A stretch of DNA of 64,000 nt from Verrucomicrobiota bacterium (lineage in GTDB: Bacteria > Verrucomicrobiota > Verrucomicrobiia > Limisphaerales > UBA11358), in NCBI GenBank assembly GCA_049517655.1, contig JBEKRQ010000003.1, positions 132,906 through 196,905 of the forward strand, read 5' to 3'. Shown here in pieces: positions 2,704 through 59,166 of this stretch. A program made the translations under genes and the position numbers. The notes below the pieces were generated by a model. That model saw only the letters and a list, made by a program, of their open reading frames with translations. It ran no database searches and was not told the DNA's origin. The stretch's first letter is position 1. Each line of letters opens with the position of its first letter.

Positions 2704-4662
2704 CTACTCGAAGACCATGATAAAACCACCACGCGGTTGCAGCGTGACCTTCAGTTTCCTGTCGGAAGCAAGGCGGACCTTCTCTTGTCGGAACGAAAGG
2801 TTGCCGTCTTTGCCATCGGTGATGAGCGTGCCGGAGCCGCGAATGGGCAGTTCGCCCAGATCCAGCGTGAGGGTTTTTGCGGTCGCTTCGCCGTTGATAC
2901 CGGCAACATACCAGCGGCCTTCGCCCTGGCGCGCAAGGACCACAAACTTGCCCGGGAAACCGTCCAGGAACTTCGTGTCATCCCAGACGGCCGGCACACC
3001 CTTGAGAAAATTCCGCACATAGCCGGGTGCCTTCGCCATACCCTCCGGAATCTCCGCGTAATGCTGGATGCCCGAGGTGAAGAGCACCGACAATGCCAGC
3101 TCGAATGCGCTGGTGGTGCGGCGCTGGATATGGTTGATGTGATCGAGCACCATCGGGGTGAAATCCATCGGATCGAAGACGTTTCGTGTGAACGGCAACA
3201 TGGCCGCGTGCGAAGGCTCCTGGTCGGCGTTGTTCTGTTCAAACGTGACATATTCGAGGCCACGGACCGCCTCCATTGTCATCAGGTGCGGATAGGTCCG
3301 CTGCCAGCCGCGGGGCAGCGTCGCGCCGTGGAAGTTCATCAGGAAGCCATACGGCGCCGCGTCATCGAGAATGTCCAGATAGTAATTAATCACGGACTGT
3401 CCATCGCCGCCGAAGAAATCAATCTTAAGTCCGGCGACGCCCATGTCCTTCAGTTTCGCGAACTCCTTGACGCGGCTCTCGTGGGTGAGCATAAGGTCGC
3501 GCGGCGTCTGCGGGGCTTCGTTCCAATCTCCCGCCGAATTATACCACAGGAGAATGCCCACGCCCTTGCCGCGGGCGTAATCCACCAGTTTCTTCATCTT
3601 ATCATAACCGATCTGTTTGTCCCAGCCGGAGTCAATCAACGTGTAACGCCAGCCCATCCCGGCGGCGTAATCGATAAATCGTTTTTGCACCTCGTAAATC
3701 GTCTGGCCATCCCCGAGCAGCGGCCAGCTCCACGACGCCTTGCCGGGCCGGACGGACGTGTCCGCGGGATGCGCCGGCGGGTCGGCCAGATCAATGCCCA
3801 GCGTGGATTCGGCAATGGTCTTGAGACTGCCGACCGCGATGATGCGCCACGGCGTGAGCCACGGGAGCGGCGATTCGGGATTGACGGGACCGTTCTGAAA
3901 ATTCTCGCGCGGGTCGGGAAAGCCGACCGAATACTCCCCGTCCGGCGATTCGGCGCGCAGCCGCGTGGCGCAATAATTTCGCGACAGCGAACCTTCGCTC
4001 ACCAGGAGCCATGTGTCCCCGGAACAGAACAGGGCGGGATAAACCCAACCGGCGCTCGTCGGCGACGGCGTGCCGGCGGGGATGTCCTTTTTGTAGAATT
4101 CCTCGTAGGCAGGGTTTGTCTTTTTGAAACCGGTCTTGGCCACCGACATCGGCTGGAGCCATGCGCGCGTGCCCGGCGGAAAATGAAACGAGGAAACTTC
4201 CTCCGTCAACCGGCGCGTGCCGGAGTTCATCCCGGGGAAGAAATAGCGGAAGGCCACCCCGTCGTTGGAGACTTGGAAGATGATGTCCATGTCTTGATCG
4301 TCGGCGTTCAGCAAATGGAACACCTTCCGGTTCGCGAAATAGGTGTTCAACCGCCGCTTGGCGGTGAGAATCTCATATTGGTCCCGCACCGGTTCCGTAT
4401 CAACCGATGCCAGCCGAAGGCCTTTGGAAAAATCGGCGTCGTCGCGCACCAAACCGAGGCGCGAATCCAGTAGCACGGGTTTGCCATCGAACCAGATGGT
4501 ATAACGCGGCCCGTCGGCGGCACCGAGATAAAACTCGACCTCCAGCCGGCCATTGGGACTGGCAATGCCAGGCGCTTTTGACTCCGGCGCCGCATTGGCA
4601 ACACTGCAACAAATGAGGACCGCCGTTAATGTGGCGAATGGTTTGAGCGGATTGGATAACAT
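2704..4662 (-). CDS. glycoside hydrolase family 97 (alpha-glucosidase-like), secreted
   Basis: ORF 2704..4917 trimmed to the ATG at 4662 (MLSNPLKPFATLTAVLICCSVANA signal peptide). GH97-like blocks include RFIDYAAGMGWRYTLIDSGWD and GLKIDFFGGDGQ. Confidence 0.85.
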   Translation of the reverse strand: MLSNPLKPFATLTAVLICCSVANAAPESKAPGIASPNGRLEVEFYLGAADGPRYTIWFDGKPVLLDSRLGLVRDDADFSKGLRLASVDTEPVRDQYEILTAKRRLNTYFANRKVFHLLNADDQDMDIIFQVSNDGVAFRYFFPGMNSGTRRLTEEVSSFHFPPGTRAWLQPMSVAKTGFKKTNPAYEEFYKKDIPAGTPSPTSAGWVYPALFCSGDTWLLVSEGSLSRNYCATRLRAESPDGEYSVGFPDPRENFQNGPVNPESPLPWLTPWRIIAVGSLKTIAESTLGIDLADPPAHPADTSVRPGKASWSWPLLGDGQTIYEVQKRFIDYAAGMGWRYTLIDSGWDKQIGYDKMKKLVDYARGKGVGILLWYNSAGDWNEAPQTPRDLMLTHESRVKEFAKLKDMGVAGLKIDFFGGDGQSVINYYLDILDDAAPYGFLMNFHGATLPRGWQRTYPHLMTMEAVRGLEYVTFEQNNADQEPSHAAMLPFTRNVFDPMDFTPMVLDHINHIQRRTTSAFELALSVLFTSGIQHYAEIPEGMAKAPGYVRNFLKGVPAVWDDTKFLDGFPGKFVVLARQGEGRWYVAGINGEATAKTLTLDLGELPIRGSGTLITDGKDGNLSFRQEKVRLASDRKLKVTLQPRGGFIMVFE

Positions 4663-4676
4663 GCGGACTTTCACAA

Positions 4677-5768
4677 CTACATCACGCGCGCCCGGCCGCG
4701 GCCCTTGACCACTTCGCCAATCAGCCACGCCTTGTGCTTTTGCGCGCGGATGAATTTCAAGACCGCATCCGCCTGGTCCGCCGACACGATGGCGACCATG
4801 CCAATGCCCATGTTGAACACCTGGTAAAGCTCGGCATCCGGCACGCCGCCGCGCTTGGCGATGAGCCGGAAAATCGGCGGCACATTCCACGAACCTTTGC
4901 GGATGACCACGTCGCAATTCTTCGGCAACACGCGCGGGATATTGTCCACGAACCCACCACCGGTGATGTGGGCGAAAGCTTTTACCGGGTAGGGCGCGCT
5001 GTCCCCAGCGCGCCGCGGCGCTTTCGGAGAAAGCGCCCTACCATTGAAACGTTTGAGAAGCGCCTGCACCAGCGGGCCGTAGCTGACGTGGACCTTCAAT
5101 AATTCGGCACCGATGGTGTTTTTCAATCCCGGCACGCGGCTGGTCGGCTTGAGCTTCAGTCGCTCGAAGAAAATTTTTCGCGCGAGTGAATAGCCGTTCG
5201 TGTGCAGGCCACTCGATGCAATGCCGATGACGGCGTCCCCGGCCCTGACGGTTTTCTGGCCGTCGAGCATTTTGGATTTTTCCACGACGCCGACAATCAT
5301 GCCGCTCACGTCATATTCACTCTTTTGGTAAAAGCCCGGCATCTGCGCCGTTTCGCCGCCGATGAGTGCGCAATGATTTTCCGCGCACGCCTTCGCAAAA
5401 CCTTTGATGATTTCGATGAAAACACGCGGCTCCAGTTTTCCCGTGCCGAGGTAATCAAGGAAAAACAGCGGCTCTGCGCCCAGCACGGCGATGTCGTTGA
5501 CGCAATGATTTACGAGGTCGGCGCCGATGGTGTCGTGCCGGTTCATCGCGAATGCGATTTTCAGCTTTGTGCCAACACCGTCCACGGACGACACGAGGAC
5601 TGGCTCACGATATTTTTTCACGTCGAGTGCAAACAGACCACCGAAGCCGCCGACCTTGCCGAGCACCTCGCGGCGATGCGTGGCAGCGAGCAATTGCGGC
5701 AGCGTCGCCTTGACCTTGTTGCCCAAATCAATGTCCACGCCCGCGCGGGCGTAAGCCTTTTGTTTCAT
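4677..5768 (-). CDS. purM: phosphoribosylformylglycinamidine cyclo-ligase (AIR synthetase)
   Basis: MKQKAYARAGVDIDLGN..., DGVGTKLK and AHITGGGF motifs. ATG at 5768 preferred over 5807. Confidence 0.93.
   Translation of the reverse strand: MKQKAYARAGVDIDLGNKVKATLPQLLAATHRREVLGKVGGFGGLFALDVKKYREPVLVSSVDGVGTKLKIAFAMNRHDTIGADLVNHCVNDIAVLGAEPLFFLDYLGTGKLEPRVFIEIIKGFAKACAENHCALIGGETAQMPGFYQKSEYDVSGMIVGVVEKSKMLDGQKTVRAGDAVIGIASSGLHTNGYSLARKIFFERLKLKPTSRVPGLKNTIGAELLKVHVSYGPLVQALLKRFNGRALSPKAPRRAGDSAPYPVKAFAHITGGGFVDNIPRVLPKNCDVVIRKGSWNVPPIFRLIAKRGGVPDAELYQVFNMGIGMVAIVSADQADAVLKFIRAQKHKAWLIGEVVKGRGRARVM
4988..5042. repeat. GGTAGGG-type compound palindromic element inserted in frame in purM
   Basis: ggtagggcgc...gcgccctacc outer stem encloses two 9-bp stem hairpins (ggcgcgctg/cagcgcgcc and ggcgctttc/gaaagcgcc). 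It encodes the extra loop GRALSPKAPRRAGDSAPYP. Confidence 0.8.
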
Positions 5769-5880: not shown

Positions 5881-7104
5881 ATGAATTTGGACACGCTTTA
5901 TTCCGAATTGACACTTAAGCCCAATGCCAAGCTCGCGCTGGTCGTGCTCGACGGCTTGGGTGACATCGCAACGAAGGAACAAAACAGCCTCACGCCACTG
6001 GAAGCCGCTCGCACGCCGAACCTCGATGCGCTGGCAAAAAACTCGGCGCAAGGCCGCATGATCCCCGTCGCGCCCGGCATCACGCCCGGCAGCGGACCGG
6101 GACATCTCAGTCTGTTCGGCTATGATCCGCTGGAATTCCAGGTCGGACGTGGCGTGATTGAAGCGCTTGGCCTGGGCATGGAACTCAAGCACGGTGACGT
6201 TTGTGCCCGCGCCAATTTTGCCACACTCGATGCGAAAGGAATTGTCACCGACCGCCGTGCGGGGCGCATTCCCACCGAAACGTGCGAGAAACTGTGCGCC
6301 ATGCTTTCCGCAAAGGTGAAAAGGCTTGGCGACACGGAAATTATCATCAAGGCAGGCAAGGAACATCGCTTCGTTGTGGTCTTTCGCGGCAGAGAACTCG
6401 AAGGTCCGCTCACGGACGCCGATCCGAACCGCGAAGGTTTTCCCATTCCCACGGTTCATCCGCGCAACGAAAACAATGTTGGCCAGAAAAAAATGGCCGG
6501 GTTGATTGCTGATTTTTACAAGACCGCGCTGCCGATCATCGCGAGGGAAAAACCGGCGAACGGTTTTCTCATGCGCGGCATTGCGCATAAGCCGCACATT
6601 CCGCTGTTCGAAGAGCGTTACAAACTGAAGGCCGCGTGCCTGGCAGTTTATCCGATGTATAAAGGCCTCGCGCAACTCGTTGGCATGAAGAAAATCGAAG
6701 GCCCGGCAACCATTGCGGAGCAATTCGAGCGCTATCTCGAGGAACACGACAACTTCGATTTCTTTTTCATCCATTACAAATACACCGACAAATACGGCGA
6801 GGACGGCAACTTCATGGCGAAGATGAAGGCGATCGAGGATTTCGACGCCGCGTTGCCGATTTTGCTGAGGAAAAAGCCGGACGTGCTGGCCATCACCGGC
6901 GACCACTCGACGCCCTGCGCGGTCAAGGGCCATTCGTGGCATCCGCAGCCGGTGCTGCTGCATTCGGCGTTGAGTGGCTCGGACAAGCTCGAACGCTTCA
7001 CGGAAACCGGCGCGAACAGCGGTTCGCTTGGCGTATTTAAGGCGAAGTATTTGATTCGTCTCATGCAGGCCAACGCGAGGATGTTTGACAAGTTTGGCGC
7101 GTAA
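5881..7104 (+). CDS. apgM: cofactor-independent phosphoglycerate mutase, archaeal-type (ApgM family)
   Basis: LVVLDGLGD..., PGSGPGHLSLFGYDP and ITGDHSTP motifs. ATG at 5881 (MNLDTLY) preferred. Confidence 0.85.
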   Translation: MNLDTLYSELTLKPNAKLALVVLDGLGDIATKEQNSLTPLEAARTPNLDALAKNSAQGRMIPVAPGITPGSGPGHLSLFGYDPLEFQVGRGVIEALGLGMELKHGDVCARANFATLDAKGIVTDRRAGRIPTETCEKLCAMLSAKVKRLGDTEIIIKAGKEHRFVVVFRGRELEGPLTDADPNREGFPIPTVHPRNENNVGQKKMAGLIADFYKTALPIIAREKPANGFLMRGIAHKPHIPLFEERYKLKAACLAVYPMYKGLAQLVGMKKIEGPATIAEQFERYLEEHDNFDFFFIHYKYTDKYGEDGNFMAKMKAIEDFDAALPILLRKKPDVLAITGDHSTPCAVKGHSWHPQPVLLHSALSGSDKLERFTETGANSGSLGVFKAKYLIRLMQANARMFDKFGA

Positions 7105-7118
7105 ACTTTCCGGCAGCC

Positions 7119-7715
7119 ATGAATTTGCCGAACAAGCTGACGGTTTTGCGCTTCGCGCTGACGGCGCTTTTTCTGTGGGCGCTGTTCTCGCCGATTCGGT
7201 ATAACAACACTCTGGCGCTGGTTTTCTTTTCCCTGGCCGGTGCCACGGATTTTCTTGACGGCTGGCTCGCCCGCCGTCGCGGTCTCATCACCAATTTCGG
7301 CATTTTGATGGACCCGCTCGCGGACAAAATTTTGACGTGCTCGGCGTTCATCGCTTTTGTTGAGAGCAGTCACCTGAATCCAGGCGCGCCGGTCAAGGTT
7401 GCGGCGTGGATGGTCATCATCATCGTCGCGCGTGAACTGGCGATTACCGGCTTGCGACTGCTGGCGGCGTCCAAAAATGTCGTGCTGGCTGCGGAGAAAT
7501 TCGGCAAGCACAAAACCGTCTCACAAATCGTGACCATCAATGCGTTGCTGGTCATGGACGCCAGCGATGAATGGTGGCCGTGGCTGCGCGATGCGTTTCA
7601 TCCGTGGGTGGGTGAGTTTGCGCAGATCATGCTTTGGGTGACGGTCGTGCTGACGGCGGCGTCCGGCTTGATTTATTTATGGCGCAACCGCGCGATTTAT
7701 TTAAGCGACGTCTAA
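7119..7715 (+). CDS. pgsA: CDP-diacylglycerol--glycerol-3-phosphate 3-phosphatidyltransferase
   Basis: CDP-alcohol phosphatidyltransferase motif DFLDGWLARRRGLITNFGILMDPLADK in a small multi-TM protein. Confidence 0.88.
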   Translation: MNLPNKLTVLRFALTALFLWALFSPIRYNNTLALVFFSLAGATDFLDGWLARRRGLITNFGILMDPLADKILTCSAFIAFVESSHLNPGAPVKVAAWMVIIIVARELAITGLRLLAASKNVVLAAEKFGKHKTVSQIVTINALLVMDASDEWWPWLRDAFHPWVGEFAQIMLWVTVVLTAASGLIYLWRNRAIYLSDV

Positions 7716-55414: not shown

Positions 55415-55612
55415 TTGACAGAAATCAGACTAAAAAAAGGCGAACCGGTGGATCGCGCGTTGCGGCGGCTGAAGAAAAAAGTCGACCGCGAAGGCACGCT
55501 CAAGATCGTGCGCAATCACCGGCATTTCGAAAAGCCGAGTGAAAAGCGTCGCCGCAAGGAAAAGGTCGCGCGTTTTTCCGCGATGCTCACCGCGCGCTAC
55601 GCGGATTTGTAA
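55415..55612 (+). CDS. rpsU: 30S ribosomal protein S21
   Basis: EIRLKKGEPVDRALRRLKKKVDREGTLKIVRNHRHFEKPSEKRRRK. TTG start. Confidence 0.9.
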   Translation: MTEIRLKKGEPVDRALRRLKKKVDREGTLKIVRNHRHFEKPSEKRRRKEKVARFSAMLTARYADL

Positions 55613-55982
55613 TTTTCTCATTGCAACCAGACCGGACACGGCAAAGATTTTGTCGTATCCGGTCTGCTGTTTTGTGCGTCAATCCGCAATCGCAAATCGG
55701 CAAGTGGATCGCGTTGGTCCAATCGGTGACGTTTGGGTTCATGCTTGTGGCTTCCAAAGGCGAAAGCTTTGTTAAAGATTCCAAATTAGGGCAATAATAT
55801 ACTTGACTCATTTTGCGTCTGTTCTGGATTGTCGCCGACATAATCGGTTTATTGCTTGGCGCGTTTCCGCGCTCGCTGTTCTTTAATTTTTTTATCCAAC
55901 TCTGCCTTTGGGACTTTCATCAGTCCTTTGGCTAGGGCTTGGAACTTTTGGAACGGCGTTTTCCCCGGTATTGTTTTTTCTT

Positions 55983-56927
55983 TCATGCTGGTTGAGGTTC
56001 GCCAATCAACTGTGCATAGGTCAAACGCTTTCCAAAGATTAAGCCGACCGCCTTCAAGAATCGCGTTTGGTCGTTTTCTTCACGGTTATTGAACCGGAAA
56101 ACTTGTTCATCAACGTAGCGTTTCAAATGAACCGGCTCGACGCTGACATACGTTCCTTTAATGCACCGCTTGAACAAGCTCCAAAAGTTTTCTAGTCCGT
56201 TGGTGTGAACATTGCCACGCACGTATTCTTTTGCGTGGTCAATTACTTGGTGAACAAAATCACGGTTAAGCCCCTTGTAGCCTAGCCAATAATCGGTGAA
56301 GATTTGTGAGCCTTTTTCGACGCTTTGATAAACTTCATCTTGGAGCGTTCGCATTTTGGTATCGGGAATGTGGTTGGCTTTAATTTTCCCGTCTCGCTCT
56401 AAAATTCCCATGACAATCGCTTTGCCCACTCCGCCCGTGCCACGTCCACGTCTGCAATTTCTTTCCTTGTGCATGTTACAGGCAAGTCCCCCAATCCAAG
56501 TTTCGTCCACTTCGACCTCACCCTTGAATTTTTCAAACGTGCCAGTCTGCATGGCGAGCCGGATTCTTTGGAGCATGAACCAAGCAGTCTTTTGCGTGAC
56601 GCCGATTGCACGGTGGACTTCGTAGGAACTGACGCCGTTCTTTGCATTGGCAATCATCCAGATTGCGGTCAGCCATTTATCCAACGGCAACGCGCTGTCC
56701 TCGAAAATCGTGCCGACACGCACCGAGAACTGGCTTTTCTCTTTGCAGCATTTGCATTTCCAGATTTTGCGCGTGGCAATGAAACTCACGTCCTCACATT
56801 GGCAACGCGGGCATTTTATTTTATCCGGCCAGCGCAGTTTCACCATAAAGTCAAACGCCACTTGCGGGTCTGCAAAATAGCGGACAGCTTCGACTAGGGT
56901 TTGGGGGAATTCGTTATTCATTTTCAT
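55983..56927 (-). CDS. IS1595-family transposase (zinc-ribbon + ISXO2-like DDE domain)
   Basis: N-terminal CPRCQCE...CKCCKE zinc ribbon, followed by VEVDETWIGG and the downstream DDE region. Confidence 0.88.
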   Translation of the reverse strand: MKMNNEFPQTLVEAVRYFADPQVAFDFMVKLRWPDKIKCPRCQCEDVSFIATRKIWKCKCCKEKSQFSVRVGTIFEDSALPLDKWLTAIWMIANAKNGVSSYEVHRAIGVTQKTAWFMLQRIRLAMQTGTFEKFKGEVEVDETWIGGLACNMHKERNCRRGRGTGGVGKAIVMGILERDGKIKANHIPDTKMRTLQDEVYQSVEKGSQIFTDYWLGYKGLNRDFVHQVIDHAKEYVRGNVHTNGLENFWSLFKRCIKGTYVSVEPVHLKRYVDEQVFRFNNREENDQTRFLKAVGLIFGKRLTYAQLIGEPQPA

Positions 56928-57723
56928 TTTGCTCCGTTTCTTTGGGATATTGCTTTCGGAAAGTTGTGTAGGCTTCTGTAATTATAGTGCTCATCATTGC
57001 CTTCCATGCCGCCCTAGTTTGCTGGTCATATTTAGAAATTGTATCTACCGTTGTTTTTATAAGTGCCAAAGCCCGCACTCCTTCGCTAAGTCTTATGCCG
57101 TGTTTCTTGCTGATAATTCCTACTTTTGTATCCCCTCCACAAAAGGCGTCCACTTTCTTTACTTCTTCAACGGTATAAATCGCGGTAATTATAGCCTCGC
57201 TGTCGTCTAGGTTGTAAATTTCAGAGCGATTCAAAATAAATTCCGCAACCGTAGCTCCACATCCCATAGTGGCGTAATTATATTGTCTAGTGGCGATTCC
57301 CGGCCAGAAGTTCAAAATGTATATGTAAGGTTTTGGTTTTTCCTTTCCATAATAATAGGCAACCATCAAAGCGAAATTATTGTCGGGGTCTTGAAAGTAT
57401 TCGTGTGCGAATTGTCTGTTGTCTTCCCAATGGTTCAGCCGGATGACTTCCTGTTTTAATTGCCGCAGAGTATCTTCACAAACTTCCGCTGGCTTTCGAT
57501 AATCGTTAATCGGCGTAGCCTTGGCAAGATTTGTAAATATCTCCACCGCACGAGAAGAAAGTTCTGCGTTGCCAGATTGCGCGACCAATGCGCCGTCTCC
57601 ACCCTCAAAAAATACGCCAGATATTTTGTTCGTGTCCGTCCTTTTGGACGAACCAGAAGAAGTTTGGCTGTCGCTGGCAAGAATAATACTGCCATCACAA
57701 ATTAATCCCACTATAATCGTCAC
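56914..57723 (-). CDS. proteasome-beta/HslV-like Ntn hydrolase (IS passenger)
   Basis: Track ORF 56914..58308 trimmed to the GTG at 57723, which is preceded by aaaaggaaaa. (M)TIIVGLICDGSIILASDSQTS starts with Thr after Met removal, as in HslV and proteasome beta subunits. The upstream part of the track ORF is antisense to cca. Confidence 0.7.
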   Translation of the reverse strand: MTIIVGLICDGSIILASDSQTSSGSSKRTDTNKISGVFFEGGDGALVAQSGNAELSSRAVEIFTNLAKATPINDYRKPAEVCEDTLRQLKQEVIRLNHWEDNRQFAHEYFQDPDNNFALMVAYYYGKEKPKPYIYILNFWPGIATRQYNYATMGCGATVAEFILNRSEIYNLDDSEAIITAIYTVEEVKKVDAFCGGDTKVGIISKKHGIRLSEGVRALALIKTTVDTISKYDQQTRAAWKAMMSTIITEAYTTFRKQYPKETEQNENE

Positions 57724-57825
57724 AGGCGTTTTCCTTTTCTTTAGTTTCTGAAAAGGATGCCCGTTTAGCCCTTGTGAGTCAAGTATATTATTACCCAAAT
57801 TAGCTTTGCGCCTTCGCGCCTTTGC

Positions 57826-59166
57826 GTGAGAATGAATTCTGTGAATTTTTCTCTGCGCGAGACCGCTGGTGAAATTGTCCGTCGCTTGCAAACGGCGGGC
57901 TTCGCCGCCTTCTGGGTCGGCGGTTGTGTGCGCGATTTTTTGCTCGGACGCGAGCCGCAGGATTACGACATCGCCACGGACGCGCGCCCGGAACAAATCG
58001 AAAAGCTGTTCAAACGCACCATCGCCGTCGGACGCAAATTCGGCGTGATGGTCGTCGTTGAAGACGGGCATCAATTTCAAGTCGCCACGTTTCGAGCCGA
58101 GGCGGATTACATGGATGGCCGGCATCCGGAGCAGGTAACATTCAGCGACGCGCAAGCCGACGCGCGTCGCCGTGATTTCACCGTCAACGGACTTTTTTAC
58201 GATCCGATCGTCGAAAAACTTCACGATTGGGTCGGCGGCGAAAAGGATTTGCGCGCCAAAATCATCCGCACCATCGGTTCGCCAGACGAACGTTTTGCCG
58301 AAGACCATTTACGTCTGCTGCGCGCGGTGCGATTTGCCGCGCAACTGGATTTTGAAATCGAGCCGCAAACGTTCGTGGCGTTGAAAGCCAACGCGCCAAA
58401 AATCGGAAACATCAGCGCCGAACGAATTCGCGACGAACTCATCAAGTTATTTTCCCCGCCGCATGCCGCACGCGGCTTGGTTTTGTTGCGCGACAGCGGG
58501 TTGCTCGAACCGATTTTGCCCGAACTCGCGGCGGCGATTTCATGCGAACAATCGCCGGATTTTCATCCTGAAGGCAGCGTGTTCGAGCACATCCGGTTGA
58601 TGCTCGAAAAACTGCCGCCGAACACGCCTTCATCGCTGCCGTGGGCGGTGATTTTGCATGACATCGGCAAGCCCGTGACGGCTGAACACGATCCGCAAAC
58701 CGGTGCGATTCATTTTTACGAACACGAAAAAACCGGCGCGGTGATGGCGGAAAGAATTTTGCAACGGCTGCGGTTTCCTAAAAAACAAATTGAGGAAATT
58801 GTCGCGTGCGTGCGGCAGCACATGCAGTTCAAGGACGTTAAACAAATGCGCAAGGCGACGCTGCGGCGGTTGTTGATGCGCGAGACGTTTCCCCTTGAGC
58901 TCGAATTGCACCGGCTGGACTGTCTCGGCTCGCACGGCAAGCTGGATCATTACGAATTTTTGGTGGAGCAGGCTGCGGAATTGAAAAAGAAACCGTCAAT
59001 TCGTCCGCCGCTGCTTACAGGGGATGATTTAATCAAGCTGGGCATGAAGCCCGGCCCGGCAATAGGCGCGCTGCTGGCGGAAATCCGCGAGAAGCAATTG
59101 CAGGACGAATTTAAAACACCGCGTGAGGCAAAAGCCTGGGTGAAGAAACAGCTCAAAGCGGAATGA
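57826..59166 (+). CDS. cca: CCA-adding tRNA nucleotidyltransferase with HD domain
   Basis: GGCVRDFLLGREPQDYDIAT and RDFTVNG motifs plus a C-terminal HD (ILHDIGKP). The start may be the ATG at 57832. Confidence 0.9.
   Translation: MRMNSVNFSLRETAGEIVRRLQTAGFAAFWVGGCVRDFLLGREPQDYDIATDARPEQIEKLFKRTIAVGRKFGVMVVVEDGHQFQVATFRAEADYMDGRHPEQVTFSDAQADARRRDFTVNGLFYDPIVEKLHDWVGGEKDLRAKIIRTIGSPDERFAEDHLRLLRAVRFAAQLDFEIEPQTFVALKANAPKIGNISAERIRDELIKLFSPPHAARGLVLLRDSGLLEPILPELAAAISCEQSPDFHPEGSVFEHIRLMLEKLPPNTPSSLPWAVILHDIGKPVTAEHDPQTGAIHFYEHEKTGAVMAERILQRLRFPKKQIEEIVACVRQHMQFKDVKQMRKATLRRLLMRETFPLELELHRLDCLGSHGKLDHYEFLVEQAAELKKKPSIRPPLLTGDDLIKLGMKPGPAIGALLAEIREKQLQDEFKTPREAKAWVKKQLKAE

Follow-up and report, generated by a model that had tools for sequence, protein, structure and literature searches.

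The common view of bacterial insertion sequences (IS) is that they encode a transposase and not much else. A few accessory proteins are known from them, such as IstB, the IS66 accessory proteins and TnpB, and each of these has given rise to a research field of its own. Typical members of the IS1595 family are ~0.7-1.1 kb long, contain one open reading frame (ORF) and duplicate 8 bp of their target, which is the norm of the family. Here we describe a complete IS1595-family element of 2,006 bp, located at positions 55790-57795 of a 64,000-nucleotide stretch of Verrucomicrobiota contig JBEKRQ010000003.1 (hereafter, the window), which encloses between its inverted repeats (IRs), upstream of the transposase gene, a gene for a homologue of the proteasome β subunit. 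Within its IS lineage this protease gene is always present, always in the same place and under selective constraint, and three lineages of transposases, all of one superfamily, have recruited the same protein family.

Anbu, a bacterial relative of the proteasome, is usually encoded in an operon together with transglutaminase-like, ATP-grasp and Alpha-E genes. Anbu, WPH and PHI are among the orphans considered by Fuchs, Alva and Lupas in 2021, whose survey of new proteasome homologues, the most thorough of its kind, reports no informative genomic context and does not mention transposons (PMC8665760). The protein encoded by the element resembles these orphans in being a stand-alone β-like protein with no AAA+ partner and no propeptide, in its similarity to both α and β subunits, and in its occurrence in bacteria of the Planctomycetes-Verrucomicrobia-Chlamydiae (PVC) group. 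With WPH and PHI (reference sequences WP_040339656.1 and WP_012956871.1), compared by description only, it also shares an insertion following helices H1/H2 and a long H5 helix predicted to form a coiled coil (PMC8665760). The elements described below provide the first genomic-context clue to the function of one such orphan family. A literature search returned no paper linking IS1595 or any other IS with a proteasome homologue, ISfinder and the founding 2009 paper on the IS1595 family being outside this search, and it is possible that such ORFs have already been curated as anonymous "passenger genes".

The element and the proteins it encodes

An earlier note on this DNA had placed an IS1595-family element between rpsU and cca, and the transposase domains, the IRs and an 8-bp duplication all bear this out. 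The ends of the element, GGCAATAAT... and GGTAATAAT..., match each other at 20 of 21 positions. The repeat GGGYAATAATATACTTGACTC occurs exactly twice in the window, at 55789-55809 on the plus strand and at 57776-57796 on the minus strand, with no occurrences expected from 100 shuffles, and the pair is the longest inverted repeat of the region in a repeat search. The repeats are located where the note had put them, but their extent had to be corrected from 22 bp (21/22 matching) to 21 nucleotides (nt) once the duplication was re-read. The note had proposed AAATTA or the 8-bp CCAAATTA as the duplication; comparison with other insertions gives instead the 8-bp CAAATTAG. Related elements are always flanked by an 8-bp C-N6-G repeat, and for this reason the G of "GGG" and the C of "CCC" that lie farthest out are assigned to the duplicated target.

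Three overlapping genes lie on the minus strand inside the IRs, with overlaps of 14 nt between the protease and transposase genes and of 4 nt between the transposase gene and that of a small basic protein. The earlier note was right about the 269-codon gene upstream of the transposase, its 14-nt overlap, its GTG start after aaaaggaaaa and its position inside the IRs; the gene content that it listed, protease and transposase, was incomplete, since the third gene had been overlooked. The features of the element are as follows.

55782-55789: left copy of the target-site duplication, CAAATTAG, identical to the octamer at 57796-57803
55790-55810, plus strand: terminal IR at the transposase-distal end, GGCAATAATATACTTGACTCA; the same end is found in related elements L004, L006, L013, L014, L035, L049, L051 and L052
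55849-55986, minus strand: gene of the 45-amino-acid basic protein, MKEKTIPGKTPFQKFQALAKGLMKVPKAELDKKIKEQRARKRAKQ; start and transposase stop share the bases ATGA
55983-56927, minus strand: gene of the IS1595-family transposase, 314 amino acids, with an N-terminal zinc ribbon and an ISXO2-like DDE domain (Pfam, NCBIfam)
56914-57723, minus strand: gene of the proteasome-β-like N-terminal nucleophile (Ntn) hydrolase, 269 amino acids; GTG start followed directly by Thr
57724-57774, minus strand: leader between the IR and the GTG, with the ribosome-binding site (RBS) AAAAGGAAAA; leader and RBS are kept across most elements
57775-57795, minus strand: terminal IR at the protease-proximal end, reading GGTAATAATATACTTGACTCA on this strand, located by the repeat search, the shuffles and related elements
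57796-57803: right copy of the target-site duplication, CAAATTAG, matching the left copy

A -35-like TTGACT in the IR next to the leader is a putative promoter; a consensus scan of the leader returned no strong sigma-70 site. The G+C content is ~0.45 in the element and ~0.55 in its flanks. There is no second copy of the element within the window, and each element examined appears at one site only in its genome.

The protease scores 29.5 bits against the Pfam Proteasome family (PF00227), for which the gathering score is 22.4. When a profile of 22 homologues was compared with the PDB, archaeal 20S β subunits gave the best match (1.8e-13), ahead of Anbu (~4e-5 to 5e-4). An NCBIfam scan of 88 family members found matches to the archaeal β model in 84, to the bacterial β model in 37, to α models in 35-41 and to HslV in 2-3, all of these scores being far under the curated cut-offs. 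The AlphaFold2 (AF2) model is of high quality (pLDDT 94.4, pTM 0.89) and matches the proteasome-β/Anbu fold: Foldseek returned 1,056 PDB matches at E<=0.001, and among the matches listed 50 of 50 are proteasome subunits or Anbu, with Thermoplasma acidophilum, Mycobacterium tuberculosis and eukaryotic β subunits and Anbu at the top (E ~1e-10). Thus, where the earlier note had spoken of a proteasome-β/HslV-like protein with an N-terminal Thr, the β type stands and the HslV alternative does not, β (and α) models being nearer (84/88 versus 2-3/88).

The catalytic residues are Thr2, Asp18, Lys33, Gly51, Cys155 and Asp192. Among the 88 homologues the columns other than that of Cys155 are nearly invariant: Thr2 in 84/84, Asp18 in 88/88, Lys33 in 87/88, Gly51 in 88/88 and Asp192 in 85/88. 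The G-(Cys/Ser)-G motif has Cys in 59 homologues, as in the window protein, and Ser in 29, and the distance from this Cys/Ser to Asp is 37 residues in 81 of 88. The Ser129-Asp166 spacing of the proteasome pentad is likewise 37 residues (PMC11947121). In all but one homologue the residue preceding Thr is Met or Val, its codon being ATG or GTG, and therefore translation is taken to start at the codon before Thr, with no propeptide. For the same reason, a propeptide in the in-frame upstream stretch KKRKTPV, which some gene calls include, was considered and rejected; this stretch is the RBS. Loss of the initiator Met would leave Thr1 at the N-terminus, as in HslV. By sequence, fold and catalytic triad the protein is a proteasome-like Ntn hydrolase (PF00227 / MEROPS T1), and, its catalytic triad being complete, it is predicted to be proteolytically active.

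At the same time, the protease is not a canonical 20S β subunit, HslV or Anbu. With the archaeal 20S β subunit (PF00227, MEROPS T1) it shares the fold (Foldseek E ~5e-11, TM ~0.75 on the target), the N-terminal Thr, equivalents of Asp17, Lys33 and Gly47, the 37-residue spacing and the best PDB profile match. It differs from it in the absence of a propeptide, in having Cys for Ser129 and Ser169, in a sequence identity of only 14-20%, in an NCBIfam β equivalog score of 28.5 bits against a cut-off of 224, and in two structural additions, namely an extra helix after H2 (residues 103-111, within a variable segment 97-116) and a 43-residue C-terminal helix (216-258). In the family, conservation clusters round the active site, and it is the post-H2 insertion and H5 that vary most. 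HslV resembles the window protein in being bacterial, in lacking an α ring and in starting, when mature, at Thr after Met removal, but HslV is ~90 residues shorter and has neither the H2 insertion nor the H5 helix of the window protein; the latter has no HslV match of its own, and there is no adjacent hslU. Anbu is set apart by its weaker match and by the absence of its usual operon partners from all loci. Indeed, no gene for an α subunit or an ATPase is present in or beside the element at any locus examined, in agreement with the stand-alone character ascribed to the gene in the earlier note.

The protease family comprises at least 431 clusters (50% identity, E<=1e-30) among 1.84 billion representatives, almost all of them from uncultured bacteria of soil and peat. 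In 185,579 species genomes only 4 loci with a homologue were found, in Limisphaerales, another Verrucomicrobiota metagenome-assembled genome (MAG), Chloroflexia and Terriglobia. In the ORF list the window protease is extended to 464 amino acids (56914-58308, minus strand), past the IR and into sequence antisense to cca; at least one public gene call (P0001, 294 amino acids) also overextends its N-terminus, as do several other family entries. Domain fusions were considered for the longer members (up to 856 amino acids); they contain no further Pfam domain and probably are over-extended gene calls.

The transposase matches Pfam PF12762 DDE_Tnp_IS1595 (E 4e-40, 137.7 bits, cut-off 27), PF12760 Zn_ribbon_IS1595 at residues 24-63 (4.7e-11, 42.9 bits, cut-off 25.4) and NCBIfam NF033547 transpos_IS1595 (184 bits, cut-off 75), and has at least 7,999 homologues at E<=1e-40. 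By its DDE domain, zinc ribbon, IRs and 8-bp duplication the element is a member of the IS1595 family on every point tested. It shares with the family the zinc ribbon and DDE_Tnp_IS1595 transposase, the short IRs, the 8-bp duplication and the presence of extra genes within the IRs; it differs in that a proteasome homologue and the 45-amino-acid protein are fixed in its lineage. Its ends, GGCAATAAT, resemble what we take to be the ISfinder consensus of the ISNwi1 subgroup, an assignment that is presumptive.

The small protein has 45-52 amino acids in related elements, with the conserved core GKTPFQKFQALAKGLMKVPKxELDKKI; its identity is 58-84% among eight closer elements and 37-49% in comparisons with element L052. 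Its 37 homologues are all unnamed or labelled "hypothetical", and searches of Pfam, NCBIfam, PADLOC and PHROG returned no match.

Related elements and other transposase lineages

Related elements were gathered through searches with the protease and through searches with the transposase. Nine further independent insertions were compared, eight of which have an 8-bp C-N6-G duplication of their own; for the ninth, L017, no matching target duplication was found. The octamers are listed below.

Window element: CAAATTAG, a C-N6-G octamer
L004: CTATCAAG
L006: TTGATTTG
L013: CTAAATAG
L014: CAAAATAG
L035: CAAATTAG
L049: CTACGGAG
L051: CAAATAAG
L052: CAAGTTAG

Since nine insertions in unrelated neighbourhoods each have their own duplication, it is the whole unit, including the protease gene, that transposes. 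The order of genes between the IRs (protease, transposase, small protein and an optional fourth ORF) is the same in related elements, the first three following one another in this way in L004, L006, L013, L014, L017, L023, L035, L049, L051 and L052, and no related copy has the protease gene outside its IRs. The distance from the IR to the protease start is 72-75 nt in most elements and 108 nt in L052; the protease has 250-330 amino acids, and the transposase gene overlaps or abuts its gene. In a local hidden Markov model (HMM) search the trio of proteins was recovered in L001, L004, L006, L013, L014, L035-L040 and L049-L052, and the protease with the transposase in L017 and L023. When three relatives of the transposase were picked blind (P0095, 86% identical; P0108, 74%; P0158, 66%), a gene matching Pfam Proteasome was directly upstream in all three. 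The words "passenger" and "unusual cargo", which the earlier note had applied to the gene, understate its standing, the gene being fixed and constrained in this lineage and a component of two other transposase lineages as well.

Between the small-protein gene and the distal IR there is a place for a variable fourth ORF (~88-142 amino acids), which is empty in the window element. In element coordinates it is occupied as follows.

L013: 1936-2202
L014: 1918-2238
L017: 2055-2450
L035: 1982-2290
L052: 1984-2250
L004: 3685-4113

Several of the products resemble small membrane or signal-peptide proteins, and it is here that these elements appear to carry their true cargo. In L004, the closest non-identical relative (protease 72% identical), an ISL3-family insertion at 6216-7454 interrupts the transposase gene, and the protease gene is intact.

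The family is found with other transposases too. In a second IS1595 architecture (L032, L041 and L012) the protease and transposase genes are convergent at opposite ends, and the transposase is 35-39% identical. The L032 and L041 units are enclosed by perfect IRs of 26-27 nt whose sequence, CGGGAyTAT...TTGACAAA, is a related one, and they have 8-bp duplications GGTGACGC and AATTGAAT, respectively; L012 has a related 28-nt IR that is 86% matching. Third, distant homologues of the GSG type adjoin an IS1-like DDE transposase gene in each of five loci.

L009: IS1-like transposase at 2846-3730
L024: IS1-like transposase at 4512-5576
L025: IS1-like transposase at 1061-1891
L027: IS1-like transposase at 1478-2305
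L028: IS1-like transposase at 4852-5736

These transposases are 57-68% identical mutually, with the IS1 family as the best NCBIfam match at 55-66 bits (cut-off 100), and stand in three relative orientations to the protease homologues. IRs were looked for round the IS1-like elements and none was resolved; the protease gene is described here as adjacent to them. The replacement of both Ser129 and Ser169 by Cys is confined to the IS1595-linked clade (Cys/Cys in 59 of 88 homologues).

Evolution and possible role of the protease

Our tentative preference is for a protease that serves the transposon as an accessory component, as opposed to random cargo. Three considerations lead us there: its slot never holds another gene; it is the first gene of the operon and probably translationally coupled to the transposase; and the same family has been recruited by three transposase lineages. 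The picture is as follows. DDE transposition into the rpsU-cca spacer duplicated the octamer CAAATTAG, and the compact three-gene operon runs inward from one IR. Translation of the protease, the transposase and the small protein is probably coupled, because their coding regions overlap by 14 nt and then by 4 nt. The protease, made without a propeptide and exposing Thr1 upon Met removal, would act post-translationally on a protein that governs the activity of the element. The most likely target would be the transposase or the transpososome, which could undergo turnover, processing or disassembly; alternatively, the target may be a host factor. We infer, rather than observe, the substrate, the oligomeric state and any role of the protein in transposition.

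There are precedents for such control, as proteolysis or remodelling by Lon (IS903 transposase) and ClpX (Mu) governs DDE transposition by setting cis-preference or by completing the reaction, and the protease would be an element-encoded equivalent of Lon/IS903 or ClpX/Mu. The analogy would be partial: Lon and ClpX are host-encoded, ATP-dependent and not proteasome-type Ntn hydrolases, unlike the element-encoded protease. Protease domains are also known from eukaryotic transposons, namely the Ulp1-like domain of Mutator-like elements (MULEs) and the cysteine protease of Maverick/Polinton. These may be viewed as parallels in that a transposon stably keeps a protease gene, but neither of these proteases is a proteasome-type Ntn hydrolase.

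Selection on the protease gene is purifying, as omega is 0.12 for the L013/L014 pair and 0.17-0.24 for deeper pairs. The modules of the elements, however, have different histories. Identity among elements ranges from 66 to 95% for transposases and from 22 to 86% for proteases, and two pairs depart in opposite directions.

L006 / L051: transposase 95%, protease 31%
L013 / L014: transposase 77%, protease 86%

At a transposase synonymous divergence (dS) of ~0.6-0.7, synonymous sites of the protease are saturated, and in a sliding comparison of the DNA the identity rises abruptly, from unalignable to 78-98%, precisely at the protease/transposase junction; from these two observations it follows that modules were swapped by recombination. 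The protease alleles are far older than the transposases next to them, old alleles being kept on a fairly homogeneous backbone. The small protein is shuffled among elements too. The first ~350 nt of the transposase gene (element ~900-1250, window ~56545-56895) show 82-97% DNA identity compared with 47-68% in mid-gene, and since the 5' third is far more similar at the DNA level, the transposase gene itself is mosaic. In several elements, ORFs in alternative frames are uninterrupted over part of this stretch; its conservation could reflect recent recombination, or an overlapping signal or RNA.

Divergent alleles (22-61% identity) swapped by recombination between near-identical transposase backbones are typical of conflict or specificity modules, and this is where the main alternative reading gains its strength: the protease may be true cargo that plays no part in transposition and benefits the host or the carriage of the element (in stress, in phage defence or counter-defence, or through degradation of restriction or immunity proteins), the IS acting as a "transporter IS". 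ISfinder recognises IS1595 members, among the longer ones, with passenger genes. The pattern of variation, with the post-H2 insertion and the C-terminal helix changing round an invariant active site, fits this reading, and the variable fourth ORF shows that these elements do carry cargo. Also in its favour are homologues that stand alone, with no transposase, in plasmid, integrative and conjugative element (ICE) or toxin-antitoxin (TA) neighbourhoods (L045, L047 and L034), one lying between parAB with a relaxase gene and a SocA/PemK module and another adjoining Phd/YoeB, on other mobile DNA. However, true cargo slots vary, whereas the protease slot is constant in family, in distance from the IR and in transposase overlap across 12 loci and the three blind picks. 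Recurrence of one family with three transposase lineages also speaks against cargo, as do the absence of a match to any PADLOC defence model and the absence of relatives from viral contigs. We regard the cargo reading as quite possible, though we would not expect it to hold.

Two candidate connections to phages were examined and set aside. A match to the anti-CRISPR protein AcrID1 (17.8 bits, cut-off 30) is due to chance, recurring in only 2 of 88 relatives. A phage origin was rejected, as no relative was found in IMG/VR contigs and the sole PHROG match is to a generic "peptidase HslV family" (1e-8). Nor was a homologue of the protease found in 72,556 plasmid records.

Several observations weigh against the accessory role that we favour. 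There is no physical or genetic link of the protease to the transposase. The phylogenies of the two proteins are incongruent, as the L006/L051 and L013/L014 pairs illustrate, which disfavours a tightly co-evolving enzyme-substrate pair. Since the element encodes neither an unfoldase nor an ATPase, the protease could degrade a folded transposase only with the help of a host partner. Stand-alone members of the family indicate that the protein can work outside an IS. Cultured bacteria have IS1595 transposases on 176 plasmids, with identities to the window transposase of no more than 43%; these relatives have no proteasome-like gene and transpose without it. Finally, because the elements are single-site in their genomes, there is no sign that the protease promotes proliferation. 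A bolder form of the same reading, according to which the protease is an obligatory or regulatory transposition cofactor for an entire branch within the IS1/IS1595 superfamily and degrades, processes (in a connectase-like manner) or disassembles the transposase complex, seems to us doubtful. Were it true, these would be the first prokaryotic transposons known with a proteasome-type enzyme of their own, and an orphan family of bacterial proteasome homologues would gain a biological role. For transposon biology, the arrangement suggests either that the element itself encodes a layer of post-translational control or that a conflict module is at work.

Proteasome homologues span a range from barrel proteases to a monomeric ligase, and insertions after H1/H2 may preclude ring assembly (PMC8665760). 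The presence of such an insertion (residues 97-116), the absence of an encoded partner ATPase, the clade-specific change of Ser129 and Ser169 to Cys and the strong conservation of the co-transcribed small protein are all compatible with a connectase-like, sequence-specific processing enzyme or ligase, as distinct from a degradative protease, acting on one defined substrate, for example the N-terminal zinc-ribbon region of the transposase or the 45-amino-acid protein, as an on/off switch of the element. Yet the protein lacks the insertion between S3 and S4 that covers the active site and typifies connectase, the long C-terminal helix resembles the coiled-coil H5 of Anbu that makes ring-to-ring contacts and thus favours an oligomer, and no candidate recognition motif was found. 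We consider such a switch unlikely.

The constant co-transcription of the protease and small-protein genes could also suggest that the element is stabilised by an addiction-type or toxin-antidote system made up of the two, the more so as relatives of the protease lie among toxin-antitoxin genes and the elements are single-copy and retained at one site across many samples. The transposase gene separates the two genes, however; elements of the second architecture and stand-alone homologues have no small protein; disrupted protease genes exist (L019, L023 and L031); and neither protein matches a TA family. An addiction pair is therefore very improbable.

The insertion site in the rpsU-cca spacer

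On the left of the element lies rpsU (55415-55612; S21 match, 7.7e-18), and on the right cca (57826-59166; CCA-adding enzyme or poly(A)-polymerase family), whose start codon is 30 nt past the element end, the distance of about 30 bp that the earlier note had given. It is plausible from this geometry that the insertion affects the cca promoter, the native upstream DNA having been displaced by 2 kb. The identical protease is found on 19 contigs, and the insertion site is the same in 19 of 19. An empty site was sought through relatives encoding an identical S21 protein and none was recovered; these relatives are distant, their DNA similarity being confined to coding regions.

In all of the relatives with identical S21 (L053-L061, ~4200-5250) rpsU is followed by an AP_endonuc_2 gene (xylose-isomerase-like TIM barrel, 286-303 amino acids), which in several of them separates rpsU from cca. 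This gene is absent from the window (55613-57825), where the IS is found instead. Since the 8-bp duplication is intact, we argue that the IS did not cause its loss.

An element in another Verrucomicrobiota MAG (L049/L050; 3045-5346 and 6698-8140) lies ~1.4 kb from the cca gene of its own genome, with PfkB in between. Its transposase is 86% identical, and the cca gene there is 81% identical at the DNA level to that of the window; the insertion site is different, and the proximity of this element to cca may be a coincidence. Just past the rpsU stop in the window, outside the IS and intact, there is an 18-nt inverted repeat at 55628-55666 that is 89% complementary and has a 3-nt loop; this hairpin probably is the rpsU terminator.

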